64,000 nt of DNA from Eledone cirrhosa (Eukaryota): the NCBI GenBank assembly GCA_964016885.1, contig OZ024752.1, forward strand, positions 40,238,001 through 40,302,000, in the 5' to 3' direction. The position numbers and the translations under genes were made by a program. Under the pieces are notes generated by a model that saw nothing but the letters and a program-made list of their open reading frames with translations, was not told where the DNA came from and did no database searches. Below are positions 446 to 51,760 of this stretch, piece after piece. The first letter of the stretch is position 1, and each line of letters begins with the position of its first letter.

Positions 446-585
446 CTCCAAAATGAATCATGTTCTTCAACATGTTTGCTAAATTTTGCATCAGTCCAGT
501 GGATATATTGGAATTCTTTTGCAACCAACTCCTCTGTTTCTCTGCTGAACAGGATTCAGCATGTGGAAATTTTCCAGCAGAATTT
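446..585 (-). CDS. Exon 32, module 6B (NSAGKFPHAESCSAEKQRSWL...)
   Basis: 140 bp, phase 2-1; next exon expected beyond the window start. Confidence 0.85.
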
Positions 586-3500
586 CTAGAAGGAAATTGC
601 ATAAGATTAAAAAAAAAATTATGAATATTTTGGATGATGAACGGCCTTCAGGAATGAATTTATGTACTGAGGTTCCACTGTATATCTACGAATACAGTAA
701 GCTATATTTCCTTCTCATTTTAAAATAATTGTTTCTACTTTAGGCACAAGGCCAGCAATTACCCAGTACATTACTGGTACTTTGTTTTATCGACCCCGTA
801 AGGATGAAAGGCAAAGTTAACCTCGGCGGGATTTGAACTCAGACTGCAAAGGGACGTAACTATGCTAGAAAGCATGGCATCCAACCCTCTACCGATACTG
901 CCAATTCACCGCCCTTCTCATTTAAAAATAATTGTTTCTACTTTAGGCACAAGGCCAGCAATTACCCAGTGCATTACTGGTACTTTATTTTATCGACCCC
1001 GTAAGGATGAAAGGCAAAGTCAACCTGGGCGGGATTTGAACTCAGATCGTAAAGGGACGTAACTATGCTGGAAAGCATGGCGTCCGACCCTCTACCGATA
1101 CTGCCAATCCACTAAGCTATGGTTTCAGGGTTATTTGACATGCTATTTCTAGCAGATTGAGTGACCAAGTAGAGGGAGCTACTTGAAACTATCATTGGAA
1201 GCTATTCATTTAGTGAAACTTTCTTTTATTTGAAATGTTAAAATAGAAAAAAGAAAATAAATTATATCTTACATGATTGTCCTTGGACTTATGTCAACTC
1301 TATTGACATCAAGTTGAAGATCACAGGCGAGATATCTTAACAACTTATGTTTAGGAGACAAATTTATTNNNNNNNNNNNNNNNNNNNNNNNNNNNNNNNN
1401 NNNNNNNNNNNNNNNNNNNNNNNNNNNNNNNNNNNNNNNNNNNNNNNNNNNNNNNNNNNNNNNNNNNNNNNNNNNNNNNNNNNNNNNNNNNNNNNNNNNN
1501 NNNNNNNNNNNNNNNNNNNNNNNNNNNNNNNNNNNNNNNNNNNNNNNNNNNNNNNNNNNNNNNNNNNNCAAATTTATTGTATTATTTCCCAGCTCTAGTT
1601 CTTTAAGCCATTTCTCAAATGTGCCACTCATCTGCATAAAAGAATTACATTGCTTTAATTGAGAGAGTGTAAAATTATTTTGTATTAAATGATATTATAA
1701 AGATGAGAATTGTGCCATTTTATTTAATAGTCTATTCCATGAATACTTGAATTCAATTGTCTTCAAATACTTCAGTAATGTAGAAATGCAAGTTGTTATT
1801 GTTTAGCCACTTGGATGAAGCAGAGCAGATCTATAATCAATGTCATTTCAGCTACAATTATTCCATATTTTCGGGCTGTGTAAGCTGAACTAGACTATCT
1901 AATGTGTACTTCTTTTTTAAAGATGATAACTTGTGTAGTTTCAGGGAAATTTGGCTTTTATTTCTAAGATTAAGCAACTAGACACCTCAGATTAAGCAGT
2001 AAAAACTGAATTGTATTTCAGTGTCACTTCAAGTTGTCAACAGTAAAACAATATATCATCATCATTGTCATCATAATTGTTTTTACATCCATTTTTCCAG
2101 GCTTGCATGGGTTGACAGGCCCTTTTCAATACACCATCTCTCCACACATCGTGATCCTTCATCATCTTGACTGTGTTTCAGTGATTTGAGATTACCTCTC
2201 ACCACTTCTCTCCAGGTCTTTCTTGGCCTTCCACTACTGCAGCTTCTTGGCACTTCTTCACTCAGCAATTATCATTCATGTGTGTCACATGTCCATACCA
2301 AATACAATAGACTAATATAATATGGCTAAATGCAAAAAAAGCATTCATACTGTGTCATCCTTTACACAGGGTAACATGCGACATTTTCAGGCCTTTAGGT
2401 AGAGGGACCTGTTTGAAAAATATATTGCAGTCTCTATCCAATTACATGATCAGTATGTGAACACATACTTTACTATAGATCAGTGCTTCTCAAACTATCT
2501 GATGTGGCGGACTGGCATTTTTTATTTCAATATGCCACGTACCGCTAATATTTCGTAGTAATATTAATTTATACCGGAAACGATATATATAATGAATATA
2601 ATAATAGTTGACCATTTTTTTATCTTCTATTTATTTTGTAAACAAATAATACAATATCAAAACATATAAAAAAAGTAATAAAAAAATTCCTCAAATGATT
2701 CCTTAGCATGGCCTGGACACTGGCCGTGTACCGGTAGCTGATGACTCACATACCGGCACCGGTTCGCTGACCACCACTTTGAGTAGCACTGCTATAGAAT
2801 ACATATATGTCAAAAGGAGTAAGAAAAAAAGAAAATGACATTGAGAGATGAAGTTTGACATGAAGAGGTATGATGGCTCAATAGATTCAAGTTGATTCTC
2901 AAACATTTTGCAGTTTCTACTTACATCTCCAAGAGGAATACTGGAAAGAGTTTCAAAGATTTTCCAGTCTTTTAACATTTGAAAAATATTTCCATTGAGT
3001 TGCGCTGAAGAAGTAAAAGAAACATTTAAGATTACGTATGATTTTGTCATAGATCTAAATAAAGTTTGAGTGTTGATGTGTGGATGTGAAATGTTTGTTC
3101 TGAAGTGGTGCAAATTGCAGCAAACAAGACAATGTTTTACAGTATTTAATTGTGTCCTACATTCTTAGTTTATATCTTATCAGGTTCAACTTTGTATTTC
3201 ATATTTCTGAAGTTAAAGTAGGTACCAAATTCATTTTGAGCTGATATTCCACTCTGCTTCACTCTGTTTGTCATGTGAAGGAATGCAATTACTACACTTC
3301 AATAAGTTTATTACTAGTAATTGCAATAATAATAATGGGCTCTGATTTAGGCACAAGGCCAACAATTTTTTAGGGGAAGAGGAAATCCGTTTAAATCGAC
3401 CCCAGTGCATTACTGGTACTTTATTTTATTGATCCCGACCCCATAAAGATGAAAGGCAAAAATAACCTCGGTGGGATTTGAATTCAGAACATAAAGGACG

Positions 3501-6500
3501 TAACCATATGCCACAAAGTATGTTGTCTGAAACTCTACTGATACAGCCAACCTACAGCAACCTCTTGTAATAATAATTGTTTCTACTTTAGGCACAAGGC
3601 CAGCAATTACCCAGTGCATTACTGGTACTTTATTTTATCGACCCCGTAAGGATGAAAGGCAAAGTCAACCTCGGCGGGATTTGAACTCAGATCGTAAAGG
3701 GACGTAACTCTATGCTGGAAAGCATGGCGTCCGACCCTCCACCGATACTGCCAATCCACCGCCCTAATAATAATGATAACGAGGATAATGATGATGAAGA
3801 TCATGATAACAGGATAATGACGATCATAGAGATGGTAATGGTTATAAAAACTTACCAAGTGAAGGTCTCAATGAGAGTAAATAATTGATGAGATTATCAG
3901 CAAGTGTTATGGAACTTGAATTCAAGAACTTTTCTAAATCATTTATGGGTTTTATACATTGTTCAATATGCATCTTCAAATTTTCAACTGTGTTGAGAGA
4001 GCTAAAGAAAATTAAAAGAGAAATTAGCTAAAGTTTATTAGGCACACTCCACAATGGGTCAACATCCACAGGGCAATCCAATGGACAACATCCACTTGCT
4101 TCAATGCCACCTCAATAACACAAATCTATTTTTTATATACTTGTAATTTGTACCTTAGTTTAGATTTATCGATTTGTTGGACACAGATCACAATTTCTTG
4201 AAGAATTTTTGCTTCAGGTCCCCTGCTGACATTCATTACAATAGTTGAGACCATTCTTATCAGATCCTCGATCTAAGAAAATAAATTTAAAAATATTTAC
4301 CTGACAATAAAAGTTGATTCTGGTTTAATTTCAATCATTAACATTGATTAATTAATAATTTAATTATAAAAGCATTTTGTTGACATATTTAAGTAATAAA
4401 AAGATAGATTTGATTATTTCCAATTTCGTTATTCAAGGCACCATTCGCGAACCAATACGTTTTATGTTCGGTAAAGTTGTTCGTGCTGAGAGGTAAACAC
4501 TGCGACGGCTTCAATAGAGTACATGGAGGCCATGGAGTTGGCACAAGGAATGAGGAAGGATTCAGACTTCTAGAATTCTGCGACGCCAATGACATGTCGA
4601 TATGTAACACAAACTTTAAAAAACCCGACAACCACCTGATCACCTATAGATCAGGGGAGCACTCTAGTCAGTTAGATTTTATCCTCATCAGAGGACGTGA
4701 CAGATGGACGGTCGTAAACACAAAAGCCTTCCCTAGTGAGGAATGTACATCCCAACATAGCTTAGTTGTCAGCGACCTCACGGTCAGAACTAGACGAGCC
4801 CTGAAACAGAGGCCAACCTGGAGAAGAAAGATCTGGAAGCTGAAAGTCCCCTCAACCAGTAACAGATTTAAAGATATTTTACTCAACGCCTACGACAGTA
4901 AAGAAGAACAGATAGAGACATTTAACGTAGAAGAGAACTGGGAGTTCCTAAAAAATAACTTACTAGAGGCGACGGATGAGGTTTGTGGCTGGAGTAAGAC
5001 CTCAAGCAGGAGGAGAGTGACTTGGTGGTGGAACAATAAGGTAGATGAAGCAGTCAAGGCCAAGAGACAGGCATGGAAAGAATGGAAGAACGGGGGGAGC
5101 AGGGTACATTACATAGAGACCAAGAGGGAAGCTAGGCGACAAGTATACTTAGCTAGGAGGGAAGCAGAGGATAGAAAATTCAAGCATGTTTTACAACGTG
5201 AGGACCAGAAACAGGAGGTATTCAAGATTGCGAGGCAGTGTGTCAGAGATAGTTGTGATGTCATTGGAGAGAAGTGTATCCGGAATGATAAAGGTGAGCT
5301 TGCCCTCACAAGTGCTGAGAAGAAAGATGCATGGAAGAGTCATTATGATAGATTACTAAATGAGGAGAATGCATGGGAAGAAGAGACCCTACCCCACGTA
5401 GACCCTATAGAGGGACCAGCAGTACAAGTCAGCGGCAGCGTAGTAAGTAAGGCAATCAGAGATATGAAGATAGGGAAGGCAACCGGTCCATCGGGTATAG
5501 CTGCCGAGATGCTGAAGGCATCTGGGTCTGTAGGTCACACTATAACCACACGTATCGTTAACCAGGTAATACTAGAGGGGGCCATACCAAAAGATTGGTG
5601 CAGTAGCATCATTGTCAACTGCTACAAAGGTAAAGGCGATGCACTAGATAGAGGAAACTATAGAGGTATAAAGTTGATGGACCAGGTCATGAAAGTAACA
5701 GAAAGAGTTATAGCACAGCTGATTAGGGACCGGGTGAATATAGACGAGATGCAATTTGGGTTTGTTCCAGGGAAAGGCACCACTGATGCGCTCTTCCTTG
5801 TGAGGCAATTACAGGAAAAGTACCTAGCTAAAAGTAAGCCACTCTACTTGGCATTTGTCGACCTTGAGAAAGCCTTTGACAGAGTTCCACGTGCAGTAAT
5901 CTGGTGGGCTCTTAGAAAACTAGGAGTAGATGAATGGCTTGTGAAAGCGGTACAAGCCATGTATAGGGGAGCAGTCAGCAAAGTTAGGATTGGCAATGAG
6001 TATAGCGAGGAATTTAGCGTACAGGTTGGGGTCCACCAGGGCTCTGTTCTTAGCCCTCTCCTGTTCATCATAGTCCTGCAGGCAATAACGGAGGAGTTTA
6101 AGACCGGATGCCCATGGGAACTCCTGTATGCTGATGACCTCGCACTCATAGCTGAATCTATGGTAGAACTAGAGAATAAATTCCAAACCTGGAAGCAGGG
6201 ACTAGAGAGAAAGGGCCTCAAAGTCAACATGACAAAGACTAAGGTCCTTATAAGTAGACGAGAAAACAGAACCCAGATCCCCTCAGGGAAATGGCCTTGC
6301 TCAGTATGTAGGAAAGGTGTAGGTAGGAACTCCATTCTTTGCCCCAAATGCAAACAATGGGTACACAAGAGATGTAGCGGGATCTCAGGAAGCTTAATTA
6401 AGAATGTAGGATTCACATGCAGCAGCTGTGCTGAAACAGCAAGCAAACAGCCACAGGAAACAAGTACCACCAATCTCTGGGAGGGCCCTGTAGAAACAGT

Positions 6501-8428
6501 AGACAGCTTCTGCTACCTAGGTGACCGAATTAGCAACGGAGGTGGGTGCTCAGAAAGTACAATAACTAGGGTAAGAACGGGATGGAAGAAGTTTAGGGAA
6601 CTACTACCACTGCTAGCTGCAAAAGGCTTCTCCCTCAGAATGAAAGGCAGACTGTATGATGCGTGTATCCGAACAGCGATGTTGCATGGTAGTGAGACCT
6701 GGGCGCTGAAGGTGGAAGACTTACGTAGATTAGAGAGAAACGAAGCCTGCATGCTCCGATGGATGTGTAACAGTAATATACGTGAACGACAAAGCATAAA
6801 TGAATTGAGAGAGAGACTGAGCATAAGAGGAATCAAATGCTGCGTGCAGGAGAGGCGGTTACGCTGGTATGGACATGTGATGCGTATGAAGGATGACAGC
6901 TGCATAAAAAGGTGCAGAGCACTAGAAGTTGATGGAAACCGCGGAGTGGGGAGACCCAAGATGACTTGGGATGAGGTGATAAAAGCCGACCTTACCCAAC
7001 TACACCTCTCAAAGTCAATGACACACGACCGTGACTTCTGGCGTCACGCAGTAATACAGGGTACCCGACCTCCCATGGGTACATGCTGAAGCATATAAAC
7101 AATATGCCCCCCCCCCCACCGCAAGGTGGTCGTGGAGGTGCCACGGCAAAAAAGCACCCAGCCCACACTGTAAAGTGGACGTGTAGGCGCCACGAAAAAG
7201 CACCCAGCACTCACTGTAAATGAGGTTGGTGTTAGGAAGGGCATCCAGCTGTAGAAATCAAGCCAGATCAGTTCCTGTATGAGCAAGGCATGGTCAGCCG
7301 ACCAGACACTGCCCACAACAGGACAACCCGTCTAACCCATGCTAGCGTGGAAGAACGGACGTAAAACGGTGATGATGATGATGATGATGATGAAGTTCCA
7401 CTGTATTTATTTAGAATAAATAGTAAAAGTTAACCCTTTATGGTCCAAGTTCAAATCCCGCCGAGGTTAACTTTGCCTTTCATCCTTACGGGGTCGATAA
7501 AATAAAGCACCAGTAACGTACTGGTCTTGTGCCTATACTAGAAACCATTATTCTCTCGCTAAGAAATCAAGGGAAATAACTCTGACTGTTTCTATAGCAA
7601 TTGTCAGCAGAAATACAGCCTTCACCATTGTTTAATGGCTCTGTGGTAACATGAAGTTGATTGTTACAAACATTTCTATATAGTAAATATAAAAATGTTC
7701 AAAATGAGCAACTGTTATATCATTCTTTGAGTAACAAATTCTTTCTATCTAATAAAAATTAACAAGAAAAATCTTACCTGCGATAATGGTATATTTGACA
7801 TGCCAGGCATCAATAAAGATTCTGGAAAAACACATTGAAATAATCAGCAGAAGTGATTGAAGAGTTAAACTTAGAGAATTAAATGAAAAATTTATTGGGT
7901 ATTTTCCTGACGGTAGAGGAGGTAAAGAAGATTACATTTATTTGTCTAATTGATACTAAAATGTTTTACAAGAAAACTGAAACTTTGTAAAGCTCTTGTA
8001 TTGTGCTGTAAAAAATATAAATATATTTTCTTTCATTCAGACATTGTTTTAATTAGTTAGAGAGAAGGAAAGTTGGAGTAGTATTTCCCTCCTTCTATAT
8101 AGAAAGGGTGATGGATAGACTGACAAACATGGCTCTTATTATAGAATAGATTTCTGAGTACAAAGATACACTCATAAGATCAATGGATACATGCCCACTA
8201 AAATGCCCACTTTATACATGCCCACTAAAATGCCCACTTTATGTATGGGCAGCTATTCCCCAATTATGTAGGCAGAGACTAAGAGAAAGGGTAGATAGAG
8301 ATAATTTAGTTAGTAAGGGAGAGTGTGTTCATGTATACCTGTCTATGTGTGTCTATGTGTGTGTGTGCCTCTATGTCTGTTTCTATATTTATGTCTACAT
8401 TGGTTTAAACGAAGCAGTAACACAGCAG

Positions 8429-8459
<31 letters not shown>

Positions 8460-17400: not shown

Positions 17401-18770
17401 CACGCTTATAACAATGTATATCATCATTGGAAATTTTAATGTAAAAAACAAAATCTGTGCATTTGTAGATACTCACTCTTAAAAACATCAATTTCTATGC
17501 TATTATTTTTTGCCAACATTTGAATCATATTACTGGTGAAATTAAAGGTTCTCTTCAACCATTGTTTTTGTTTTTGTGCCGGACAGTAGAAATCTTTTTC
17601 TAACGAATCCAAAGCCTTCCTGGAAAAAAAATTTTAAACTAAGAATTTCAACTCTACAATTGACTACTATGATGCATAAATATATACATACATATATATG
17701 TGATATGTGTTTATTTGAGTGTGTATAGATACATACATATATACATATGTATATATGTGCTTTTGTGCATGTGTGTGTGTGTGTGTGTGTGCATAGATAC
17801 ATGCATACATATGTACATACATACATGTACATGTGCTTACATACATACATACATGAAACAATGACAAAGGTGGAAGAAGAGCAATAATGCAATACCAGTT
17901 CTATTCTTAGAGACAAAAATCATTGCTAGCTGCTGAAAGAGAAGGTGAAGAAGTGTACCATGATAACTTGCTAATTGATGTAGAATAATGAAATGTGGGA
18001 TAAGTAGGGACATGTAGTGTGATACCAAAACATTGTAAAGAAGGGAGAGCTCACTGTGCAAATTGAGATGTAGATTTATTGGTGTTCACTGTGTTTATGA
18101 AGCAAATTTTTCAATAATGCAATTATATTTGCATCATATGTTTTAAGAAAAATAGTCAAAAATGTATAAGACAATGTACCATATAAAGTTTTCATCAATT
18201 TTTTCAGTTTCGTCAAGTTCAAGGCCAAGACCACAGGCAAGGAATCCAAGCATTTCATGATCCAGGGGTACAACCTTACTATTATTTCTTATCTTCAAAT
18301 CCTTAAACCATTTGATGAAAAGGGCATCCATCTGAAACACAAGGGAAAACAAAACCCCTCAATAAGGACAAACTAAAACAATGGATGTACAAATGTACTG
18401 AACTTACTGAACTTATTTATGGTTGTAAGTTCAGATTTTAGTGATGCCATTGTGTTGTGCTCCTGAGCAAAACATCTAATTTGCCTTGTAAGATTCTTCA
18501 AGTATTGAAGAAGCTTGAAGCAGTTACAAGCTGAAATTAGCTGAGCTCAAGGTCAAATCTCAGCCTCGATTGGCAGTATTGGTAGAGTGTCGGACACCAT
18601 GCTTCGCGGCATAGAGTTACAGCCCTTTACATTCTAAGTTCAAATCCTGGCGAGCTTAACCTTGCCTTTCATCCTTGCGGGTAGCTAAAATAAAGCACCA
18701 ATAATGAACAGGAGCCGGTTTAATTGACTTTCCCCTCCCCTAAAATTGTTGGCTTTGTGCCTAAAACCAT

Positions 18771-36703: not shown

Positions 36704-36735
<32 letters not shown>

Positions 36736-41424: not shown

Positions 41425-41463
<39 letters not shown>

Positions 41464-44400
41464 CTGACTTTAATAGAAACACACACTCACCACATACAGT
41501 CTATGACCCTCAAAGTATACACACATACACATACACACCACACATACACGTACACATACACACCAGCACTATTGACTGATCCACACATTCAGCCAACACT
41601 ACTTCATCCATGCTTTCATGTAAGCATGCCCCCCCCCCCCACCTCTGCATCATGGTGCCATCCAGAGGACCTCTTTTTTTCACCCACCTCTACAATATCT
41701 CCTCTCTCCCTCTTTCCTACTCTCTCTCTCTCCCTCTCCTTTCAATTCCCACCTCTTTTCCATATTTTACCTCTATCTCCTTATATTCTTTCTTTCCTGA
41801 TGAAGGATTACCATCCAAAACGTTGAAGACACTCTGTTAATTCCCTTTCTTTACAGTGTTAAACTAATAACATTCATCGTATTGTTTTAAATGTTTTTGA
41901 TTGTTGTTGACCTTGTACTATGAGAAGTTAGACATAGTGAAGAGTAACAGGAAATGGTAGATACTTAGTAGTTGCTAACTGTCTGTACCATTTTACTGGT
42001 ACAACACTGTGTCCATTGTTAAAATGCTTAACTTTCAATGTTTCATATCACATAGGTGTATATATATATATATATATATACACTGTTAGTCATTTTAGTG
42101 CCATAATAAAAAGCACTCAGCCCATGCTGTAAATGTAATTGGTGTTAGAAAGATTATCCTGCCGAAGAAACCAAGCTAGAAACAGTGATGATGATGACAA
42201 CGCAGTTTGCTTTTGTAATCAATAGGAGGATTGTATAATTGATAAATGGTTTGTTAACTTGCATTTTTTATGTCTAATGCTGATCACGAGTCATGTGAAA
42301 CTAATGGTAATCTTTATTTGTGTAATCTACTGTGAATATTTATATGTAGATCATATCTCACATCCTGCTCCAACATAGATTATTACTTCAAATTATTTGA
42401 TCAATTTAGTTACTTCTACCTTAATGCCTTTAAGGTAGTTATAGTATGAATCTTATTTCTGTACTTTATCAATCAATCAAATTTTTACAATTGGTGCAAC
42501 TATCATTAGAATTCTACTTTGGATGTTTCCACGGTTAGCAGTTGCTACAGGTCTGTATCCTCTTTCATGCACAGAAAGGCTGCAATATTATGACCTGATT
42601 AGTCCTTGATGTTGTCAAACAAGGATTTTCTTTCTCTGCTTCTTCTTTGGCTTCCCTCAACTGTACCCTGAAGGATGGTTTTAGATAGGGAGTCATGGCA
42701 GGTTATATAACAATACAAGACAAGCTTCCATTTTTTACCATCACATCGAGTAGTTACTGTTTGTATATTTGTTGAATTGCTGCCTAACAAAGTTATTTAT
42801 CTTGTGCTCTGTGTACAGGATATATTGCAGCCATCTGAAGCATTTGAGCTCAAATGCCAATATCTTCAGGTTAACAGGAAAACAAAAGTCACTTTTCATA
42901 CATTCTATAATTAAATATTAAGTATACTTACCATGTTATTCTTTTTAGCTTCCAGCAGGGTTTTTCTGGCCTGTACATTTTAGAGAGAACAATATGCATT
43001 AAATTTGTTTTTAAATATTCACCTTATACTAACTTTGTTCAATCTTAGTAAATGCATGTTTTTTTTAAGGGGGTGGAGGTCAAAGGGCGTGGAACAAAAA
43101 GGGTTGAGAAATATTGCTCTAGACAGACTTTTCATTAGACCTGGAAAGTAGATGGGCTCTGACAGGTTTTAAAATGCCCTAAAAATGCTGTATGTCAATA
43201 TCAATCGTTCATTTTGTTTTGAACTGTTTCAGCTCCATATTTAAAAAGAGGGTAATTGAAATACACTGGGTAAAACATTACTTTGTTTTGTTGTATTTGC
43301 CTTTTGTATTTTTCTGCCACATTGTACTGGCTTTTTGAAACTTATCAGTCTTTTATTACATATTCACAATGCTTTGTATTAACTACATTCATCATCATCA
43401 TCATTTTTATGTCTGCATAACCACTAGTTTAGTGTCATTGTTTTGGGAGTAAATTTGCATATTCTCACATTATTATTTTGAACTTTGCCTTTCATCCTCA
43501 CGGGGTCGATGAAATAAAGTACCAGTAATGCACTGGGTAATTGCTGGCCTTGTGCCTAAAGTAGAAACAATTATTTTGAATTGATAGCTCATTTGTTGTG
43601 GTCTTTCCTAACCTTTCTTAACTAAATAATGAATCCAATATGTTTACTTTATATATTAGAAGTTAACACAGTCAGTAATTTATAACTAAAGTACACTAAA
43701 AGTTGGCTCATTGGTTACTTAGATACCAATGTAAAGAAGACTAGTCCAACCTAACATAATTTAGCTGGCTTGATTAATAGGGCAACCTATTCACATTCAT
43801 AATTAATTACCTAATTTGGAACAGATGCTATATTAAAACAGTCATAAAACTAATAGAGCTGAACCAATGCAGTAATTAATTATTGAATGTACACTTTTAC
43901 ATGGCAAGTTATATAAAATAAATGATCTCTTCCACTGGCAAAAATACATAAATTATTTTTGTGCTGGTTTGTACAGAATATATAGAATATTGGATAGAAT
44001 TATTCACAGATGTACATAGCAATCCCACCACGAGTTATTCCCCTCCTGTCATATATATCATCATCATCATCATCATTTCATTTTACGTCCGCTTTTCCCT
44101 GCTTGCAAGGGTGGGACGGGAACTGATTCTGGCTTGATTTCTACAGCTGGATGCCCTTCCTAACACCAACCTCATTTACAGTGAGTGCTGGGTGCTTTTT
44201 TGACGTGGCACCTCCACGACCACTTTGCAGTGGAATGATAGGGACCCCAGTCCCTATCATCTCATTTCTACAGCTGAGTAAACTGGAGCACTGTTAAATA
44301 AAGTGTCTTGCTCAAGGAAACAACACATCACCCGGTCGTGTGTTGAAACAAATATTGTTATATTTGGGGCATGGGAGGGGAGGCGGCATATTGTTATAAT

Positions 44401-45125
44401 ATTGTTTCTACTTTTGGCACAAGGCCAGCAACTACTCAGTGTATTACTGGTACTTTATTTTATCGACCCCATAAGGATGAAAGGCAAAGTTAACCTCGGC
44501 GAGATTTGAACTCAGATCATAAAGGGCGGTAACTCTTTCTGCAAAGCATGGTAGTCGAGCCTCTACCGATACCAGAAATAATAATAAAACACACTCACTG
44601 TTTGGTTTGGGTTGGTTTTCGCTTCTGTGTCTTTTATATCTCCATAGTTAATTTATCTGTCAATCTATGTTTATCATTGATTGACCAACGATTAAAAACC
44701 AAACAGTGAGTGTGTTTTATTATTATTTCTGGCAATATTATAACAATATGACCCTCCCCAAAATATAACAATATATATATATATATATGGAGGCACATGG
44801 CTTAGTGGTTAGAGCATTGGCCTTGCAATCGAAAGGTTGTGAGTTCAATTCTCAGACCGGGTGATGTGTTGTTTCCTTGAGCAAGACACTTTATTTCACA
44901 TTGCTCCAGTTTACTCAGCTGTAGAAATGAGATGATTGGGACTGGGGTCCCTATCATTCCACTGCAAAGTGGTCGTGGAGGTGCCACGGCAAAAAAGCAC
45001 CCAGCACTCACTGTAAATGAGGTTGGTGTTAGAAAGGGCATCCAGCTGTAGAAATCAAGCCAGAATCAGTTCCCGTCCCACCCTTGCAAGCAGGGAAAAG
45101 CGGACGTAAAATGATGATGATGATA

Positions 45126-45160
<35 letters not shown>

Positions 45161-45730
45161 GTGTGTGTGTAATAAATAATTGAGACAGTTTTATTCGTAC
45201 ATTTTCATTTTATTCTAATTCCATTATATGTATTTCAAAGATGCAAAGGTAGTTATATAATTGTTTCTACGTTAGGCACAAGGCCAGCAATTAACCAGTG
45301 CATTACTGGTACTTTATTTTAGTTATATAATAACCACTCAGCACATTTTCTTCAGATGAATCGAGATGAGTTTTTCTATCCATTGATATGCTACTGGTTT
45401 AACGTGTTGTTAATATCGCTGTCCATATATATAAATATATACACCCGCCCCTCCTCTCTCTCTCACACACACACACACACACTATATATATATAATATAT
45501 ATATAATATATATATAATATATATAATATATATTATATATATATTATATATATATAATATATATATAATATATATATAATATATATAATATATATTATAT
45601 ATATATATAATATATATATAATATATATAATATATATTATATATATATAATATATATTATATATATATATATTATATATATATTATATATATATATTATA
45701 TATATATATATTATATTATATATATTATAT

Positions 45731-45761
<31 letters not shown>

Positions 45762-48700
45762 ATATATATTATATATATATTATATATATATATTATATTA
45801 TATATATTATATTATATATATATAATATATATATATTATATATATATATATTATATATATTACATTATATATATATTATATATATATATTATATTATATA
45901 TATTATTTTATATATATATATGGGTTAGACGGGTTGTCCTGTTGTGGGCAGTGTCTGGTCGGCTGACCATGCCTTGCTCATACAGGAACTGATTTGGCTT
46001 GGTTTCTACAGCTGGATGCCCTTCCTAAATGAGGTTGGTGTTAGGAAGGGCATCCAGCTGTAGAAACCAAGCCAAATCAGTTCCTGTATGAGCAAGGCAT
46101 GGTCAGCCGACCAGACACTGCCCACAACATGACAACCCATCTAACCCATGCTAGCGTGGAAGAACGGACGTAAAACGGTGATGATGATGATGATATTATA
46201 TATATATTATATATATATATTATATATATATTATATTATATATATATATATATTATATATATATTATATATATTATATATATATATAATATTATCATCAT
46301 CATCATCATCATCACCGTTTTACGTCCGTTCTTCCACGCTAGCATGGGTTAGACGGGTTGTCCTGTTGTGGGCAGTGTCTGGTCGGCTGACCATGCCTTG
46401 CTCATACAGGAACTGATTTGGCTTGATTTCTACAGCTGGATGCCCTTCCTAACACCAACCTCATTTACAGTGAGTGCTGAGTGCTTTTTCATGGCGCCTA
46501 CACGTCAACTTTACAGTGTGGGCTGGGTGCTTTTTTGCCATGGCACCTCCACGACCACCTTGCAGTGGGAGGGTGTGGGGGCATATTGTCTATATGCTTC
46601 AGCTTGTACCCATGGGAGGTCGGGTACTCTGTATTACTGCGTGACGCCAGAGGTCACGGTCGTGTGTCATCGCCTTGAGAGGTGTAATTGGGTAAGGTCG
46701 GCTTTTATCACCTCATCCCAGGTCATCTTGGGTCTCCCCACTCCGCAGTTTCCATCGACTTCTAGTGCTCTGCACCTTTTTATGCAGCTGTCATCCTTCA
46801 TACGGATCACATGTCCATACCAACGCATCCACCTCTCCTGCACACAGCATTTGATTCATCTTATGCTCAGTCTCTCTCTCAATTCATTTATGCTTTGTCG
46901 TTCACGTATATTACTGTTACACATCCATCGGAGCATGCAGGCTTCGTTTCTTTCTAATCTATGTAAGTCTTCCACCTTCAGCGCCCAGGTCTCACTACCA
47001 TGCAACATTGCTGTTCGGATACACGCATCATACAGTCTGCCTTTCATTTTAAGGGAGAAGCCTTTTGCAGCTAGCAGTGGTAGTAGTTGCCTGAACTTCT
47101 TCCATCCCGTTCTTATCCTAGTTATTGTACTTTCTGAACACCCACCTCCGCTGCTAATTCGGTCACCTAGGTAGCAGAAGCTGTCTACTGTCTCTACAGA
47201 GCCCTCCCAGAGATTGGTGGTACTTGATTATATTATATATATATATATATATTATATATATATATATTATATTATATATATTATATATATATATATATTA
47301 TATATTATATATATTATATATATATGGCATGTGGCTGAGTGGTTAGAGAATTGGATTCGCAATCGTAAGGTTATGAGTTTGATTCCTGGACCAGGCGATG
47401 CGTTATGTCCTTGAGCAAGACACTTTATTTCACGTTGCTTCTTCTACCTGGAGTTGCGACCGATAGATAGTATTAGCAATTGGAAAGACCAACGGAAACA
47501 TTGTTCCCTCAGTCCGATTTGACGAAAGTCGATCGTTCCTTCATATTATATATATATTATATTATATATATTATATTATATATATATTATATATTATATA
47601 TATATTATATATTATATATATACACACTACACATGCTAGCAGAAAACCACCCGAGGGGTGGTTTTTCTGCTAGTATTAATAATTGTTTCTACTTTAGGCA
47701 AAAGGCCAGCAATTACCCAGTACATTACTGGTACTTTATTTTATCGACCCCGTAAGGATGAAAGGCAAAGTTAACCTCGGCGGGAATAATAGACAACGTG
47801 GATGTTATAGTAGTTTCTGTTATAATCGAAGCAGTGTGGGGGACGATTGTAAACAAAATAAATCGAGGGAAAACATAGAAAAAAAAGAGGCGGAGAAAAA
47901 CCGAAAAACCCGTTGCCACTCCTTTAATCCAATAATCATTTTGTAAGTCAATTTTAAATAGTTTTCAACTAATATTAACCACGCCTCATATATACCTCAT
48001 TGGCTATGGCACAGTCTCTATACAAATAGCATTTTATGTAATACACAAAGAGTGGGAGGAAAAGTTTATTAAATCACCCCACCTATTCCACCCCCAGTTC
48101 TTGACTGATAATTTACTTTTGATCACTGGCATTTCGTATGACACTTATGGTACTGTCAATCTACTTTGGTAAGACATTTAATTCTAAATGTTTCTGTATA
48201 TCTTACTGAAAATAGAAAGGCACTCTACTGATGCCAGCGTTCTTGGCCCCCGGACTACATCTCTTCTCACTGCTATTGGGGCGCAGTTGGCTTCTTGAAG
48301 TGCTAAAATATATAAATATATACACAGACGTCCCACATCACGAGGCTTCCTCCTCAAGCGGGCCGTCGTCTTTCCGACTTTACAGAGGAAGTCAGCAGAG
48401 CGAGTGCTGCACGCACGATTGTGTATTAATGTATGGTTATCTGTACAAAAAGAATAATAAAGGAATAAGAAAAAAGACAAAAAAAACCCCCAAAAACACA
48501 TACTTTTTGTTTATCAGCTTTCGATATTTGCTTCACTGAGGGATAATTCTTATTGATGCCTCTTTTTAAAGGTTCCATGAAACATATTAAACTAAAAGAG
48601 AAAAATTTATTACACGTTATTATAACGGACAATAAGTAACATAACTTACTAATATCACAACATTAATGGAGTAATAGATAGTGGATTGGCAGTATCGGAA

Positions 48701-51700
48701 GAGGGTCGGACGCCATGCTTTGACGCATAGAGTTACGGTTCTTGCCATTCTGAGTTCAAATCCCGCCGAGGTTAACTTTGCCTTTCATCCTTACGGGGTC
48801 GATAAAATAAAGTACCAGTAATACACTGGGTAATTGCTGGCCTTGTGCCAAAAGTAGAAACAATTAATGGAGTAATAGATACCAATCTGAAGAAAGCCAC
48901 CGTGCTGAAATATACTGATGACATCAAGCTGTACCTTGAGATAAAAAGGACAGATCCTGTACACTATATGTCTCTTCTGCAATTAGACCTGGTCACAATG
49001 CAACAATGGATTACGGACTGGCAACTCAAGCTGCATGTGCACAAGTACCACCATGCATTTTTGGAAGGAAATCCCAGCTTTCACATACTCCCTCCACAAC
49101 ACAAATCTCAAAAAGTCTTCTTGAGAACGTGACCTGGGCATTGTGGATTGGCAGCATCGGTGGAGGGTCGGACGTCATGCTTTCCAGCATAGTTATGTCC
49201 CTTTACAATCTGAGTTCAAATCCCGCCGAGGTTGATTTTGCCTTTCATCCTTATGAGGTCGATAAAATAAAGTACCAGTAATGCACTGGGTAATTGCTGG
49301 CCTTGTGCCTAAAGTAGAAACAATTATTGTCAACAGCGATTTGCGTTGGACAAAGCATATCTCTAAAATTGTCAAAAAGACCGAGGGTGTTTTAGCATCA
49401 CACAGTAAGACCTTTGTCAGCCGCTCTCTAGCTAGCTATCTAACACTTAGAATTTGCATAATCAGGCTGGAACCCCTATCTTGCTCAGAATATTGATATC
49501 TTGGAAACTGTTCAGAGACGTGCAACCAAACGAATACCCTCCATTAGCCATCTACCATACTCTGAACACCTTGCTTCCCTACATTATATATATATGGAGG
49601 CACATGGCTTAGTGGTTAGAGCATTGGCCTTGCAATTGAAAGGTTGTGAGTTCAATTCTCAGACTGGGTGATGTGTTGTTTCCTTGAGCAAGACAGTTTA
49701 TTTCACATTGCTCCAGTTTACTCAGCTGTAGAAATGAGATGATAGGGACTGGGGTCCATATCATTCCACTGCAAAGTGGTCGTGGAGGTGCCACGGCAAA
49801 AAAGCACTCAGCACTCACTGTAAATGAGGTTGGTGTTAGGAAGGGCATCCAGCTGTAGAAATCAGGCCAGAATCAGTTCCCGTCCCACCCTTGCAAGCAG
49901 GGAAAAGCGGACGTAAAATGATGATGATGATGATGATGATGTGTGTGTGTATCAACTTCTACTTTGGTTTTTCTGCACTCATACATTTAATTTTCTATTA
50001 GTAAACATCACTTACAACGGGCGAAGCTTCTCGTCGACATCATTCAAATTATTTGAATTCAAGGTGGAAATGGATAGTTCACAAAATTCTGTTGGCAACA
50101 GGCATGTAATGTTGATTTCATCCCACTTCAGCTGAAAACACAAAATCATTTATGCTATTACTTTATTGATGGTTGGTGATAGAACGGAATGTATTGAAGA
50201 GCCCCGAATGCTCAAATGTTATTTATTATTCCTGGCATCTAACCAACGTGGAAGAGGGGAGTGGCAAATAATACAATAAAAAAAATCTCCAAAGATTTAC
50301 CCTGTGGATTTAGACAAGCATTTTGGAGCTTAAGTTATAAACCCCCCCCCCCCCCCCCCCCATAATGTAGAATGATTTTAAAGTTTTGATAGTTAAAAAA
50401 TTATGTCACTGATGATTTAAAATAATTTTGTTTCAATATACTTCAGCTTTAGTTGTTTTTGCTACACTGATTTTCTATTGACTCTAAATATGTTAGTTAA
50501 TAATAATACACATATAAGTATATATACTTAAGCTTCCTCCAATCCCCAAACCGTAACCTAAGCTAGATCAACGTTTCTCAATCTTTTTACCTTTGTGAAA
50601 CCCTTGAAATAGTTTTCATGTTTCAGGGAGCCCCTATATAAAAATCATTATATATCATTATTAATATCTATCTCTTTTATATTTTTAGTGTAGTTCGCGT
50701 GGTAACATTTTTTTTTTCGGATAACTAGCTTCTTTATGATTGTTTCTTATCAGATCAACAAATATATGAAACAAGATTTAATATAAAATCTAAAGGAATA
50801 CACATTCCTTACCGGGATAATGTCTGTATCTTCACATCTGGCGCTCACCAGCTTTCTCTTCAATGCCTTCAATTTTGCTGGTGGAGATTTTTTCTTGAAA
50901 GATACTTTAATATCTTCCCTGATAATTTCTCCAATAGATTCGTTCAGAAACAATAGTTTACTTTCTAGAGTTGTAAATGCATCTGTCATGGTGTCCAATT
51001 TGTCTATGACTAACAAATCATTGTCTATTACATCAGTTGAATCTATTTAAATAACAATAATAGTAATGGTTTCTTATATAGGTACAAGGCCAGCAATTTT
51101 GGGAGTAGGGGCAAGTCGATTAAATCGACCCCAGTGCGTGACTGGTACTTTATTTTATCGACCCCGTAAGGATGAAAGGCAAAGTTAACCTCGGCGGGAT
51201 TTGTACTCAGATCATAAAGAGCCGTAACTCTATGCTGCAAAGCATGGCGTCCGACCCTCTACCGATACTGCCAATCCACCGCCCTGTCTAATAATAATAA
51301 TAATAATAATAATAATTGCTTCTACTTTAGACACAAGGCCAGCAATTACCCAGTGCATTACTGGTACTTTATTTTATCGACCCCGTAAGGATGAAAGGCA
51401 AAGTCAACCTCGGCGGGATTTGAACTCAGATCGTAAAGGGACGCAACTATGCTGGAAAGCATAGTTACGACCCTCCACCGATACTGCCAATCCACCGCCC
51501 TGTCTAATAATAATAATAATGATAATAATAAAACATTGGTATTTGTTGACTAGGTGCAAAAGCTCTATATTTCTAGAACATGAAATATGTATTGTAACAA
51601 AATTAACTCTGGCAACCCAACACTCCACCTAACAGGAAATAAAAATAGAATCTCCTTCAAGTTATACTTTACCTACAAATGTTGTGTTCGAAATCAACAC

Positions 51701-51760
51701 TAGAAGCGATGCAATCAGTCCAAATCCAAGGAAACTGAAGGAAAATCCTTCAATTGCCAT
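446..51760 (-). CDS. Large secreted or cell-surface helical-repeat glycoprotein, mesothelin/otoancorin/stereocilin-like; 32 coding exons in window, 3' end outside window
   Basis: Hand-spliced chain of 32 GT-AG exons with every phase compatible and no stops (about 4201 nt, 1400 codons). Signal peptide, many N-x-S/T sequons, and motifs such as LGDVKNWSAGNITHLGSLVTGIS, LLGKLACGID and QWSPEFLTSLGP that resemble otoancorin/stereocilin repeats. Family call is by motif recognition, not a database search. Confidence 0.85.
725..1112 (-). mobile_element. Two tandem Nin/Deu-like SINEs
   Basis: Both preceded by near-identical flanks CCTTCTCATTT(T/A)AAAATAATTG. Confidence 0.88.
1273..1631 (-). CDS. Exon 31, module 6A, split by the assembly gap (MSGTFEKWLK...LRYLACDL...)
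   Basis: 149 bp and phase 0-2 once the 10-bp overlap across the N gap is merged. Confidence 0.85.
1369..1568. other. Assembly gap (200 N)
   Basis: Run of N; both flanks carry CAAATTTATT. Confidence 1.
2057..2302 (-). mobile_element. Old RTE 3' fragment
   Basis: GRPRKTWREVV peptide and degenerate CAT tail; similar relic at about 27320-27630. Confidence 0.7.
2481..2791. mobile_element. Non-autonomous hAT (Charlie/Buster-type) element
   Basis: TIRs CAGTGCTTCTCAAA / TTTGAGTAGCACTG; 8-bp TSD CTATAGAT/CTATAGAA. Confidence 0.88.
2925..3004 (-). CDS. Exon 30, module 5C (QLNGNIFQMLKDW...IPLGD)
   Basis: 80 bp, phase 1-0. Confidence 0.85.
3330..3764 (-). mobile_element. Two tandem Nin/Deu-like SINEs (older and younger subfamily)
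   Basis: Similarity to the 19320 consensus. Confidence 0.85.
3856..4001 (-). CDS. Exon 29, module 5B (SLNTVENLK...C...LNSSSITLAD...)
   Basis: 146 bp, phase 2-1. Confidence 0.87.
4154..4272 (-). CDS. Exon 28, module 5A (IEDLIRMV...IVICVQQIDKSKL)
   Basis: 119 bp, phase 0-2 using the AG|GTACAA donor. Confidence 0.8.
4477..7089 (+). CDS. RTE LINE endonuclease/reverse transcriptase ORF (partial)
   Basis: 870 codons without a stop; the annotated start lies in flanking DNA and is not a real start. Confidence 0.9.
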   Translation: MFVLRGKHCDGFNRVHGGHGVGTRNEEGFRLLEFCDANDMSICNTNFKKPDNHLITYRSGEHSSQLDFILIRGRDRWTVVNTKAFPSEECTSQHSLVVSDLTVRTRRALKQRPTWRRKIWKLKVPSTSNRFKDILLNAYDSKEEQIETFNVEENWEFLKNNLLEATDEVCGWSKTSSRRRVTWWWNNKVDEAVKAKRQAWKEWKNGGSRVHYIETKREARRQVYLARREAEDRKFKHVLQREDQKQEVFKIARQCVRDSCDVIGEKCIRNDKGELALTSAEKKDAWKSHYDRLLNEENAWEEETLPHVDPIEGPAVQVSGSVVSKAIRDMKIGKATGPSGIAAEMLKASGSVGHTITTRIVNQVILEGAIPKDWCSSIIVNCYKGKGDALDRGNYRGIKLMDQVMKVTERVIAQLIRDRVNIDEMQFGFVPGKGTTDALFLVRQLQEKYLAKSKPLYLAFVDLEKAFDRVPRAVIWWALRKLGVDEWLVKAVQAMYRGAVSKVRIGNEYSEEFSVQVGVHQGSVLSPLLFIIVLQAITEEFKTGCPWELLYADDLALIAESMVELENKFQTWKQGLERKGLKVNMTKTKVLISRRENRTQIPSGKWPCSVCRKGVGRNSILCPKCKQWVHKRCSGISGSLIKNVGFTCSSCAETASKQPQETSTTNLWEGPVETVDSFCYLGDRISNGGGCSESTITRVRTGWKKFRELLPLLAAKGFSLRMKGRLYDACIRTAMLHGSETWALKVEDLRRLERNEACMLRWMCNSNIRERQSINELRERLSIRGIKCCVQERRLRWYGHVMRMKDDSCIKRCRALEVDGNRGVGRPKMTWDEVIKADLTQLHLSKSMTHDRDFWRHAVIQGTRPPMGTC
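4492..7393 (+). mobile_element. RTE-clade LINE (family 1), 5'-truncated, uninterrupted ORF, (GAT)n tail
   Basis: ORF 4477-7089 has the C-terminal part of an AP endonuclease (TYRSG..SQLDFIL..SQH), an RT domain (FVDLEKAFD, GVHQGSVLSP, YADD) and a C4HC3 PHD-like finger; followed by 3'UTR and GAT tail. Confidence 0.97.
7778..7821 (-). CDS. Exon 27, module 4C, shortened (SLLMPGMSNIPLSQ)
   Basis: 44 bp, phase 1-0, tttttccag/GTAAG. Confidence 0.75.
8538..9766 (-). repeat. tRNA-derived SINE with RTE tail whose internal 127-bp segment is amplified 8 times
   Basis: TTTCTACAGCTG recurs every 127 bp from 8611 to 9627; single-unit versions at 10093, 44789 and 49596. Confidence 0.95.
9880..10016 (-). CDS. 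Exon 26, module 4B (NVFTSKQKECTPKDQKEWL...)
   Basis: 137 bp, phase 2-1. Confidence 0.85.
10093..10432 (+). mobile_element. SINE with RTE tail, same family as 44789
   Basis: Near-identical to 44789-45124. Confidence 0.9.
10716..11866. repeat. 35-bp AT-rich minisatellite, about 31 copies
   Basis: Unit AAAACCTATTTAAATGAAACATGTAGTATTTAAAT, with occasional 3-bp deletions. Confidence 0.97.
11910..14585. repeat. 39-bp GAT/GGT-derived minisatellite, about 2.7 kb
   Basis: Unit GATGATGGTGGGGAAGTTGATGATGGTGA(T/A)GATGGT(A/C)GT. Confidence 0.97.
14658..14803 (-). CDS. Exon 25, module 4A (KNVMLKKL...KILCHINTT...)
   Basis: 146 bp, phase 0-2. Confidence 0.87.
14853..16207 (+). repeat. RTE family 2 3'UTR fragment with a 111-bp unit amplified 10 times
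   Basis: Matches about 35648-36008; ACAGTCC recurs every 111 bp from 14984 to 16094. Confidence 0.95.
17095..17180 (-). CDS. Exon 24, module 3C (IIKQITPLNLT...VFFQ)
   Basis: 86 bp, phase 1-0. Confidence 0.85.
17477..17619 (-). CDS. Exon 23, module 3B (KALDSLEK...CPAQKQKQWL...)
   Basis: 143 bp, phase 2-1. Confidence 0.88.
18180..18331 (-). CDS. Exon 22, module 3A (MDALFIKWFK...LGFLACGL...)
   Basis: 152 bp, phase 0-2. Confidence 0.88.
19320..19512 (+). mobile_element. Approx. 190-bp tRNA-derived SINE with Nin/Deu-like core and (ATT)n end (representative; more than 20 copies in window)
   Basis: B box GAGTTCAAATCCC and core GCCTTTCATCCTTACGGGGTCGATAAAATAAAGTACCAG. Other copies near 725, 925, 3330, 3570, 7445, 18568, 31535, 31950, 36375, 43480, 44400, 47678, 49143, 56007, 62895, 63036 and 63763. 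Confidence 0.9.
19717..19808 (-). CDS. Exon 21, module 2C (KPQISILRNLT...LPTTS)
   Basis: 92 bp, phase 1-0. Confidence 0.85.
20698..20843 (-). CDS. Exon 20, module 2B (AAVQLITESGLKC...LNSSSESLTD...)
   Basis: 146 bp, phase 2-1. Confidence 0.85.
21208..21615 (-). mobile_element. RTE family 1, 3' fragment
   Basis: Reverse complement matches about 6986-7393, including the CAT tail. Confidence 0.95.
21649..21794 (-). CDS. Exon 19, module 2A (SAVMMEKILP...AILCDIK...)
   Basis: 146 bp, phase 0-2. Confidence 0.85.
22131..22175 (+). ncRNA. Hammerhead-like motif
   Basis: AGTCA-CTGAAGA-G-GTCAC..GTGAC-GAAA-GGAC-TA-TGACT; perfect stems I and II, minimal stem III. Confidence 0.5.
22599..22790 (+). mobile_element. 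Nin/Deu-like SINE with long TSD
   Basis: ATTATTGACAATTGTAA on both sides. Confidence 0.9.
22823..22914 (-). CDS. Exon 18, module 1C (LLNKTTIQNLT...IPVIQ)
   Basis: 92 bp, phase 1-0. Confidence 0.88.
23251..23442 (+). mobile_element. Nin/Deu-like SINE with TSD
   Basis: ATTATTTCAGAATAA on both sides. Confidence 0.9.
23520..23662 (-). CDS. Exon 17, module 1B (EAIEAIG...CSIQQQRMWL...LGPMI)
   Basis: 143 bp, phase 2-1. Confidence 0.9.
24098..24243 (-). CDS. Exon 16, module 1A (LNILFESWL...LGKLACGID...)
   Basis: 146 bp, phase 0-2. Confidence 0.9.
24405..25108 (-). repeat. Five 137-bp tandem units of a truncated SINE plus its target-site duplication
   Basis: AAAGGATCCCCATTATAAT occurs 6 times, 137 bp apart, separating 5 SINE bodies. 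Confidence 0.95.
25675..25827 (-). CDS. Coding exon 15 (SLGDVKNWSAGNITHLGSLVTG...QPSQ)
   Basis: 153 bp, phase 0-0; clearest otoancorin/stereocilin-like motif. Confidence 0.9.
26435..26692. repeat. Long imperfect inverted repeat built from a third SINE-like family
   Basis: Arms about 26435-26552 and 26577-26692; a related copy with a tRNA-like head lies at about 26731-26910. Confidence 0.85.
26965..27161 (-). CDS. Coding exon 14 (TRPDTQAAPLNCKNIT...EQLNR)
   Basis: 197 bp, phase 1-0. Confidence 0.9.
28993..29158 (-). CDS. Coding exon 13, ends in furin-type site SRTKR
   Basis: 166 bp, phase 0-1. Confidence 0.85.
29446..29539 (-). CDS. Coding exon 12 (NKLPMMTEDDLKKVG...AIPK)
   Basis: 94 bp, phase 2-0. 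Confidence 0.83.
30474..30655 (-). CDS. Coding exon 11 (LVLKKKIELSELGNLL...LFNIY)
   Basis: 182 bp, phase 0-2. Confidence 0.87.
30768..30968 (-). mobile_element. 3' part of RTE-tailed SINE, truncated at TTTCTACAG next to (TA)n
   Basis: Matches one 127-bp unit plus tail. Confidence 0.85.
32379..32502 (-). CDS. Coding exon 10 (DLKKLNLPIEKKIHLC...KYCIK)
   Basis: 124 bp, phase 2-0. Confidence 0.85.
33685..33797 (-). CDS. Coding exon 9 (EKLLAKKIVQEK...LLKYTNT)
   Basis: 113 bp, phase 0-2. Confidence 0.85.
34091..36008 (+). mobile_element. RTE-clade LINE (family 2), 5'-truncated within RT, (GAT)n tail
   Basis: ORF 34081-35607 is homologous to family 1 (YADD, PHD-like finger) with a different 3'UTR; candidate TSD TATACA at 34085-34090 and 36009-36014. 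Confidence 0.95.
36948..37168. mobile_element. piggyBac-type MITE
   Basis: TTAA on both sides; TIRs CCCTTTAGCATTTA / TAAATGCTAAAGGG. Confidence 0.85.
37193..37712. repeat. 27-bp A-rich minisatellite, about 19 copies
   Basis: Unit AAAATAAACACAAAGAATAAATAAA(T/G)A. Confidence 0.95.
39303..39485 (-). CDS. Coding exon 8 (KIIVYKKCHEVL...VMSSRV)
   Basis: 183 bp, phase 0-0. Confidence 0.88.
40154..40297 (-). CDS. Coding exon 7 (ILNNQNATTLPNIT...NLTEVK)
   Basis: 144 bp, phase 0-0. Confidence 0.85.
40835..41011 (-). CDS. Coding exon 6 (SNQDINEMKMFLDDLP...KLLKE)
   Basis: 177 bp, phase 0-0. Confidence 0.85.
41317..41382 (+). ncRNA. Minimal hammerhead motif, paralog of 60823
   Basis: TATTTTAT-CTGATGA...GAAAT-ATGT-ATA-ATAAAATA; downstream sequence also shared with the 60823 copy. 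Confidence 0.55.
42540..42870 (-). mobile_element. Old RTE/BovB-like LINE 3' fragment
   Basis: Peptide LSKTILQGTVEGSQRRSRERK..FDNIKD. Confidence 0.7.
42932..42970 (-). CDS. Coding exon 5, 39-bp symmetric microexon (ARKTLLEAKKNNM)
   Basis: Phase 0-0, tacag/GTAAGT; weak pyrimidine tract and not required to keep frame. Confidence 0.6.
44058..44337 (-). mobile_element. SINE with RTE tail, 5'-truncated
   Basis: Reverse complement of the 44789 family. Confidence 0.9.
44789..45124 (+). mobile_element. Full-length tRNA-derived SINE with CORE/Meta-like body and RTE-derived 3' tail (representative copy)
   Basis: A box TGGCTTAGTGG, B box GAGTTCAATTC, core CCTTGAGCAAGACACTTT, tail shared with the RTE 3'UTR, GAT end. 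Confidence 0.9.
45484..45920. repeat. Degenerate (TA)n tract
   Basis: Almost pure A/T alternation. Confidence 0.95.
45921..46194. mobile_element. Fold-back RTE 3' end (palindrome, arms about 108 bp)
   Basis: 45921-46028 is the reverse complement of 46041-46148; GAT tail follows. Confidence 0.92.
46293..47227 (-). mobile_element. RTE family 1, 3' fragment
   Basis: Reverse complement closely matches about 6461-7393; embedded in (TA)n. Confidence 0.95.
48504..48591 (-). CDS. Coding exon 4 (LICFMEPLKRG...KADKQK)
   Basis: 88 bp, phase 2-0, ttttag/GTATG. Confidence 0.8.
48681..48864 (+). mobile_element. Nin/Deu-like SINE with 19-bp TSD
   Basis: ATTAATGGAGTAATAGATA at 48662 and 48863. Confidence 0.9.
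48882..49581 (+). mobile_element. Decayed CR1/L2-group LINE RT fragment, split by a SINE at 49143-49327
   Basis: Peptides LKYTDDIKLY..LQLDL..W..DWQLKL, RDLG/IIVNSDLRWTKHI and LETVQRRATK.IP. Confidence 0.8.
49596..49940 (+). mobile_element. SINE with RTE tail, full length
   Basis: Near-identical to 44789-45124. Confidence 0.9.
50016..50131 (-). CDS. Coding exon 3 (LKWDEINITCLLPTEFC...KLRP)
   Basis: 116 bp, phase 0-2, cag/GTAAG. Confidence 0.88.
50813..51042 (-). CDS. Coding exon 2 (DSTDVIDNDLL...RCEDTDIIP)
   Basis: 230 bp, phase 1-0, tag/GTAAG. Confidence 0.88.
51060..51500 (-). mobile_element. Two tandem Nin/Deu-like SINEs directly upstream of the exon 2 acceptor
   Basis: Both end in GCCCTGTCT followed by (AAT)n. 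Confidence 0.88.
51673..51760 (-). CDS. Coding exon 1, signal peptide MAIEGFSFSFLGFGLIASLLVLISNTTFV
   Basis: ATG at 51760, hydrophobic stretch, GTAAAG donor phase 1. An upstream tttttacag acceptor at 51939 implies a further non-coding 5' exon. Confidence 0.85.

Follow-up and report, generated by a model that had tools for sequence, protein, structure and literature searches.

The window, by which we mean the whole 64,000-nucleotide stretch that was analysed, is AT-rich animal DNA with about 30% repeats. On its minus strand, at 446..51760, lies a gene fragment of 32 coding exons and 1400 codons that corresponds to unit 1 of a two-unit protein and is open at the left edge. Minus-strand splice-site scans produced a chain of 28 exons, and four further exons were placed from orthologs; the junctions come from splice signals and orthology. 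The spliced model has 4201 nt and no stop in its 1400 codons, with AG at 31 of 31 acceptors and GT at 32 of 32 donors. It starts at an ATG at 51760, has an in-frame stop 30 nt 5' of that ATG, and ends open at a phase-1 donor at 446. A preliminary description had listed 32 exons and at least 1400 stop-free codons in a protein still open at the window edge; our independent chain agrees with it in count, length and end points, exon 32 ending in that phase-1 donor. Searching with residues 1-1432 of the O. sinensis ortholog, tblastn finds 30 matches at E<=0.05, all 30 on the minus strand, which touch 27 of the 32 exons. For the exons left untouched (1, 4, 5, 24 and 27), the identity to the ortholog is 16/29, 14/26, 3/12, 8/28 and 8/14; exon 5, with 39 nt, is the weakest of the model. 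There is a good acceptor near 51939, which suggests that this mesothelin-like gene has additional non-coding exons upstream. Between 52000 and 64000 we saw no convincing second coding gene.

Read in the direction of transcription, exon 1 (51673..51760) supplies the ATG and a signal-peptide-like hydrophobic stretch in aa 1-29, and residues 2-29 are the only hydrophobic stretch in the window model. Exons 2-6 (40835..51042; 51042-50813, 50131-50016, 48591-48504, 42970-42932 and 41011-40835) encode a leader, aa 30-246, with 4 Cys and no family signal. Exons 7-13 (28993..40297; 40297-40154, 39485-39303, 33797-33685, 32502-32379, 30655-30474, 29539-29446 and 29158-28993) encode what we call the N-half, aa 247-581, with 8 Cys and with homology to the unit-2 N-half of the orthologs. 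One base ahead of the next intron stands RTKR (aa 578-581, 28994..29005), a predicted furin-type site. This is the single occurrence of R-x-K/R-R in the window model, and the three orthologs have RIKR there. The mesothelin-like domain begins in exons 14-15 (25675..27161; 27161-26965 and 25827-25675) with Cys 594/623. The model includes 40 sequons, 27 of them in aa 582-1400, in line with the many sequons noted at the outset; over 1000 shuffles the count averages 15.3 and never exceeds 27. Five other candidate exons (26765-26689, 26541-26429, 40703-40591, 43140-43023 and 7906-7778) were rejected because nothing in the O. bimaculoides ortholog matches them colinearly.

From exon 16 onwards the intron phases run 0-2-1 for six rounds, with exon sizes of about 146, 143 and 90 nt; two exons of the sixth triplet are inside the window. 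Each of these modules has one Cys in its first exon and one in its second, 25-30 residues apart, and the pair aligns to the mesothelin Cys pair spaced 26. Module 1 (22823..24243; 24243-24098, 23662-23520 and 22914-22823; aa 699-825; Cys 731/759) is canonical and completes the mesothelin-like domain. Module 2 (19717..21794; 21794-21649, 20843-20698 and 19808-19717; aa 826-953; Cys 858/887) is missing from the O. vulgaris model. Module 3 occupies 17095..18331 (18331-18180, 17619-17477 and 17180-17095; aa 954-1080; Cys 986/1016), and module 4 occupies 7778..14803 (14803-14658, 10016-9880 and 7821-7778; aa 1081-1189; Cys 1113/1139). The most divergent copy is module 5 (2925..4272; 4272-4154, 4001-3856 and 3004-2925; aa 1190-1304; Cys 1219/1244). 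Module 6 is represented by its first two exons (446..1631; 1631-1273 and 585-446; aa 1305-1400; Cys 1337/1366), all modules being on the minus strand. Exon 31, the first of these two, runs across a scaffold gap of 200 N (1369..1568) whose flanks share a 10-nt duplication. The frame of the exon is unchanged with or without the gap and the 10-nt duplicate, and the ortholog runs through, so the gap looks spurious; by the ortholog alignment, exon 31 lacks no coding sequence. In the orthologs, module 6 is followed by an acidic linker and then by unit 2.

Leave-one-out profiles recognise modules 1, 2, 3, 4 and 6 with 25.7-52.4 bits, scores reached by none of 500 shuffles in each case. The corresponding profile misses module 5 (1.8 bits, with 114 of 500 shuffles as high), and its assignment therefore rests on phase, size and Cys. 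Repeat expansion, proposed in the preliminary description, is seen as six phase 0-2-1 exon triplets that each carry a Cys pair. The same description overstated a repeated W..L..LG.L.C motif: W-x4-[LI]-x2-LG is found only at residues 655 and 782, and the other copies retain just L/I-x-C and a second Cys. In a tree of 20 module rows, modules group by position across species, which indicates that the expansion predates these species and that the copies have not been homogenised. The node that unites modules 3 and 6 has values of 89/92, is unstarred and is one where long branches meet; that modules 4-6 arose from 1-3 by a block duplication is a guess. Any three consecutive exons preserve the frame. 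Exons 27-29 are absent in 7 of 7 O. bimaculoides cluster members and present in O. sinensis and O. vulgaris, and exons 19-21 are absent from the O. vulgaris model; such whole-triplet differences among Octopus models could stem from loss, skipping or annotation error. Splicing from a second strong donor at 9825 (minus strand), 55 nt beyond exon 26, to exon 29 would keep the frame, and an acceptor further upstream, at 7906 (minus strand), lengthens exon 27 to 7906-7778, out of phase with exon 28. These two sites make alternative splicing around module 5 possible. We rejected 4001-3856 as a mutually exclusive exon because O. sinensis has it in line with 7821-7778 and 4272-4154.

The window also holds several kinds of repeat. 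The intron between exons 27 and 28 contains a LINE-type element (4414-7086, plus strand) with an 891-codon open frame including RVT_1 and a PHD finger, which we take to be RTE-like; it sits within the exon triplet that is absent from the O. bimaculoides models. Its 3' part recurs at 46293-47226 as a 96% copy, and 34081-35604 holds a truncated relative at 77%. Satellites cover 10742-14567, with a 35-bp unit (32 copies) followed by a 39-bp GAT-rich unit (68 copies), and the frames of more than 900 codons at 11881-14636 are satellite and not coding. Pieces of dispersed repeats are amplified head to tail at 8610-9639 (127 bp x8), 14984-16100 (111 bp x10) and 24405-25108 (137 bp x5). Two weak tRNA-family matches on the plus strand, 26736-26806 (32.8 bits) and 52084-52141 (29.6 bits), are probably SINE heads; the former overlaps the minus-strand exon-like stretch 26765-26689, which is absent from the O. 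bimaculoides ortholog.

Searched with a profile built from five exons, a set of 1.84 billion representative sequences yields 5 matches at E<=0.001. The best is P0001, the uncharacterized O. bimaculoides LOC106874393 (XP_014777596-603) of 2400 residues. Two others are in the family, a bird otoancorin (P0005) and an unnamed protein (P0003), and the remaining two (P0002 and P0004) were set aside as unrelated repeat proteins. Two further orthologs, O. sinensis LOC115212334 and a predicted protein of O. vulgaris, came from a second search. In a word-limited search with the near-full-length protein, 3 of 1294 candidates qualify, all from Octopus. None of 7998 candidates is a shorter relative when we search with unit 2, again in a word-limited search, and from neither search does absence in squid or other molluscs follow; none of 34 candidates scored in a word-based protein search with exon 15 alone, from which proteins longer than 2000 residues were excluded. 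The Octopus orthologs have about 2,200-2,400 residues and are all labelled uncharacterized or hypothetical. They are collinear with all 1400 residues of the window model at 48-51% identity (665/1372 or 48.5% for O. sinensis, 655/1274 for O. bimaculoides and 598/1240 for O. vulgaris) and share its basic site; residues 1-1432 of O. sinensis have 26 Cys, as does the window model, at matching positions. We infer that the window's host is likely an octopod and is further from the three Octopus species than these are from each other. They differ from the window gene by an S/T/R-rich insert after the leader, which the window gene does not have, and the O. bimaculoides and O. vulgaris gene models each do without one exon triplet, not the same one. 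In P0001, residues ~215-395 are 13- and 19-residue S/T/R-rich tandem repeats that vary among the O. bimaculoides RefSeq isoforms; in O. sinensis this region is reduced to a short form, and the window gene has none.

The complete orthologs are tandem doubles. Residues 422-1019 of P0001 align to 1757-2346 of the same protein with 21% identity over 607 columns (E 4e-30). Comparing unit 1 with unit 2, the z-scores are 27.2 for the N-half, 18.9 for the C-half and 0.5 for the leader; 9 of 12 Cys are exactly aligned, and the basic sites fall within 5 residues of each other, whereas just 0.1% of 2000 shuffles have a basic site in the same 11-residue slot. In each unit R-x-K/R-R, which we take to be the furin consensus, stands at the junction of the two halves, as RRKR or RRRR in unit 2. 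Orthologs have hydrophobic stretches at both ends and none internally. At the C-terminus, two of the three Octopus species have a hydrophobic tail after small residues, presumably a GPI signal, and the O. vulgaris model is without it. As far as the sequences indicate, only unit 2 ends in such a GPI-like tail. The window covers unit 1, and unit 2 is taken from the three Octopus species on the assumption of orthology. Between O. bimaculoides and O. sinensis, the putatively anchored part after the second basic site, which we call the stub, is 91% identical (286/315) versus 72-85% in unit 1. The tandem double orthologs with a basic site before each mesothelin-like domain, and the six-fold exon triplet, are new here.

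The placement of the gene in the mesothelin/otoancorin/stereocilin family, put forward in the preliminary description together with a Pfam and structure check, is borne out by Pfam on the ortholog, by an independent profile and by two fold searches. The Pfam Stereocilin family (PF21058) scores 54.7 bits on P0001 and 58.2 bits on P0008 with a cut-off of 26.6. The scan missed P0016 and P0017, for both of which a precomputed table lists PF21058. A scan of 27 of the 32 exons one at a time gives 0/27 matches to a family model, and PF06060 has no match on the ortholog at E<=0.1; the Pfam test is insensitive, as the bird otoancorin itself matches neither family model. A separate profile was made from three sequences that exclude unit 1, namely O. 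bimaculoides unit 2, the bird otoancorin and P0003. Residues 593-823 of the window model score 78.3 bits against it, and aa 582-825 score 84.2 bits, a value reached by 0 of 200 shuffles. Against the family profile, modules 2-6 score 0.4 bits and 33 of 200 shuffles are equally high. The closest named match aligns P0001 2109-2389 to otoancorin 831-1110 with 23% identity (E 1.9e-18), and identities to named family members are 12-23%.

An AlphaFold model of O. sinensis 614-880, built with 7 rows including otoancorin, is all-helical with pLDDT 72.5 and pTM 0.57. With this ortholog model, Foldseek places mesothelin at ranks 1-8 of at least 500 matches (best E 8.7e-5). In VIA-align, mesothelin holds ranks 1-4 among 48,161 chains; its best Z is 12.2, short of the value of about 13 under which the tool urges caution with helical repeats, and the best unrelated Z is 6.3. 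The best VIA-align fit has 179 aligned residues at rmsd 6.8 and puts model residues 5-205 on chain residues 303-495, so the segment after the basic site aligns to mature mesothelin from its start. The fold fit is loose overall (TM ~0.4, rmsd 7-11 A). A phmmer search of P0016 against the PDB returned 2 weak matches and no mesothelin, and in a profile search the designed helical repeat 9zem ranked above mesothelin (mesothelin E 0.0012). Atlas scores of 0.82-0.91 are leads only. The Pfam pass on the ortholog and the two fold searches point to Stereocilin and mesothelin and not to an unrelated family. On the sequence comparisons, the protein is a member of the mesothelin/otoancorin/stereocilin superfamily by homology in the shared C-terminal domain, and ortholog residues 614-880 are modelled as a solenoid of short helices like that of mesothelin.

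The protein is predicted to be a glycosylated, disulfide-stapled helical solenoid, and we read it, with a probability of roughly 0.55, as a cell-surface precursor that is GPI-anchored, cut at furin-type sites and used for adhesion to a glycoprotein coat outside the cell. The chain would be secreted and N-glycosylated, unit 2 would receive a GPI anchor, as the hydrophobic tail of the orthologs suggests, and cuts would follow RTKR and the polybasic site of unit 2. Three products would be expected: a soluble piece from the N-terminus, an anchored mesothelin-like stub of ~300 residues and, between them, a piece of ~1480 residues that comprises mesothelin-like domain 1, modules 2-6, the acidic linker and N-half 2. 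The conserved stub may then bind the glycoprotein matrix, as mesothelin and otoancorin do, and the faster-changing repeat arm may extend or cross-link it. If both sites are cut, the repeat arm would be shed or held non-covalently, not anchored. The preliminary description had guessed at a surface tether; with orthologs that are tandem doubles with two furin-type sites, that guess is weakened for the window part, located as it is ahead of the second predicted cut and lacking an anchor itself.

As to the tissue, we lean tentatively, at somewhat short of even odds, towards the male reproductive tract or gametes. We do so by analogy with testis-expressed otoancorin homologs of deuterostomes, and because of the fast divergence of unit 1, a rate that is not scaled to that of the whole genome. 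An otoancorin homolog is described as expressed in Botryllus testes (PMC4523013), and otoancorin as up-regulated in the testes of crown-of-thorns starfish (PMC9759900). Skin, sucker, gut or another mucous surface is a possible but weaker candidate, the statocyst is doubtful, and some other tissue is unlikely. At the speculative end, we consider improbable a two-headed furin-processed precursor in which the shed arm, gaining and losing whole exon-triplet modules from one octopus species to another, is a species-specific sperm, spermatophore or egg-coat adhesion protein; on this reading the cleaved mesothelin-style precursor layout would also extend outside vertebrates.

The same features can be read in other ways. 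The protein could stay uncleaved as a long GPI-anchored rod between the cell and a gel above it, in the manner of otoancorin in the ear; the statocyst, with its statolith or cupula above the rod, would be one example. Otoancorin is the closest named sequence match, the bird otoancorin is without R-x-K/R-R, and statocysts are described as having macula-statolith and crista-cupula systems (PMC6597576). However, a basic site recurs in both units and in each of the four sequences on a background of ~50% identity, and the main text of a cuttlefish endolymph proteome names none of the three family members (PMC6597576), although a membrane protein need not occur in endolymph. We regard an uncleaved rod as possible but doubtful. 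Alternatively, the glycan-rich arm may be the working product, a secreted matrix or mucus protein of skin, sucker, egg case or spermatophore, with the stub as a delivery handle. That 27 sequons out of 40 fall downstream of RTKR, that modules 2-6 retain their Cys pairs yet carry no family signature, and that O. bimaculoides has added variable S/T/R-rich repeats all speak for a matrix product, which is nonetheless unlikely in our view, since conservation is highest in the stub (91%) and this points to a binding role of its own.

A quite improbable alternative is that annotation has fused two neighbouring paralogs, so that the window gene would be a stand-alone secreted unit 1. The units are indeed homologous and joined by a low-complexity acidic linker, and the window stops before the junction; against a merger, the models of three species and a UniRef model for O. 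bimaculoides carry the two in one chain, neither a signal peptide nor a GPI-like tail occurs internally, the phase-1 donor left open at the end of exon 32 is what the orthologs call for, and the unit leaders are not detectably related (z 0.5). Convergence of an unrelated helical-repeat protein on mesothelin would fit the 12-23% identity to named members and the loose structural fit. It is very improbable and already largely refuted by the Pfam pass, the 78 bits of the independent profile, mesothelin at the top of both fold searches and the collinear Cys pairs.

Our literature searches returned no paper on the octopus gene, which supplements or expression tables in subscription journals may list. 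Nor did we find a description of a layout with two precursor units per chain and a symmetric exon triplet repeated six-fold around the mesothelin disulfide. Most of what is known about the family comes from human deafness genes and from a cancer antigen. Here an unnamed Octopus protein gains a family assignment; invertebrate members having been reported already, membership alone is unsurprising. A statocyst role, if true, would be a molecular parallel between the balance organs of cephalopods and vertebrates.

Amongst the known systems, mesothelin (MSLN; PF06060; PDB 7u9j, 8cx3 and 7ued) is the best fold match of the octopus domain. Mesothelin is described as furin-cut from a 622-residue precursor, with a mature start at E296 and disulfides C302/C326 and C442/C468 (PMC10035497). 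According to the same source, its layout comprises a signal, an N-half, a furin site, a solenoid with two Cys pairs and a GPI anchor, an arrangement that the octopus protein is predicted to share. The two Cys pairs of the mesothelin type are present in the octopus domain, the second one aligned to mesothelin: Cys 594/623 and 731/759 in the window have spacings of 29 and 28 with the pairs 137 apart, compared to 24, 26 and 140 in mesothelin. The octopus basic site, a predicted cleavage site, also fits the furin site of mesothelin in motif and position, and homology of the octopus N-half to MPF is a lead only (atlas 0.89). Mesothelin has 622 residues and one unit, and the octopus protein has ~2400 residues, two units and a six-fold module. 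Otoancorin and stereocilin are described as GPI-anchored and proposed to bind glycoprotein gels (PMC2628672). The C-terminal domain of otoancorin (OTOA) and stereocilin (STRC; PF21058) is homologous to that of octopus, a statement that for stereocilin comes from the family model and not from a direct comparison with an STRC sequence. The bird otoancorin has 1134 residues, a single such C-terminal domain and no R-x-K/R-R, and the two octopus N-halves do not match it in a pairwise comparison that uses one sequence and has low power (z 2.1 and 0.3). By these comparisons, the octopus protein is neither mesothelin proper nor otoancorin proper. The otoancorin homologs of Botryllus and the crown-of-thorns starfish, which we know from their descriptions (PMC4523013, PMC9759900), place the family outside vertebrates, with expression in the testis. 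Finally, P0003 is recognised by PF21058 and resembles both halves of the octopus protein, from which it differs in having 1097 aa and no furin-type site. The same domain occurs in it several times, with few Cys, which is another repeat-expanded layout.
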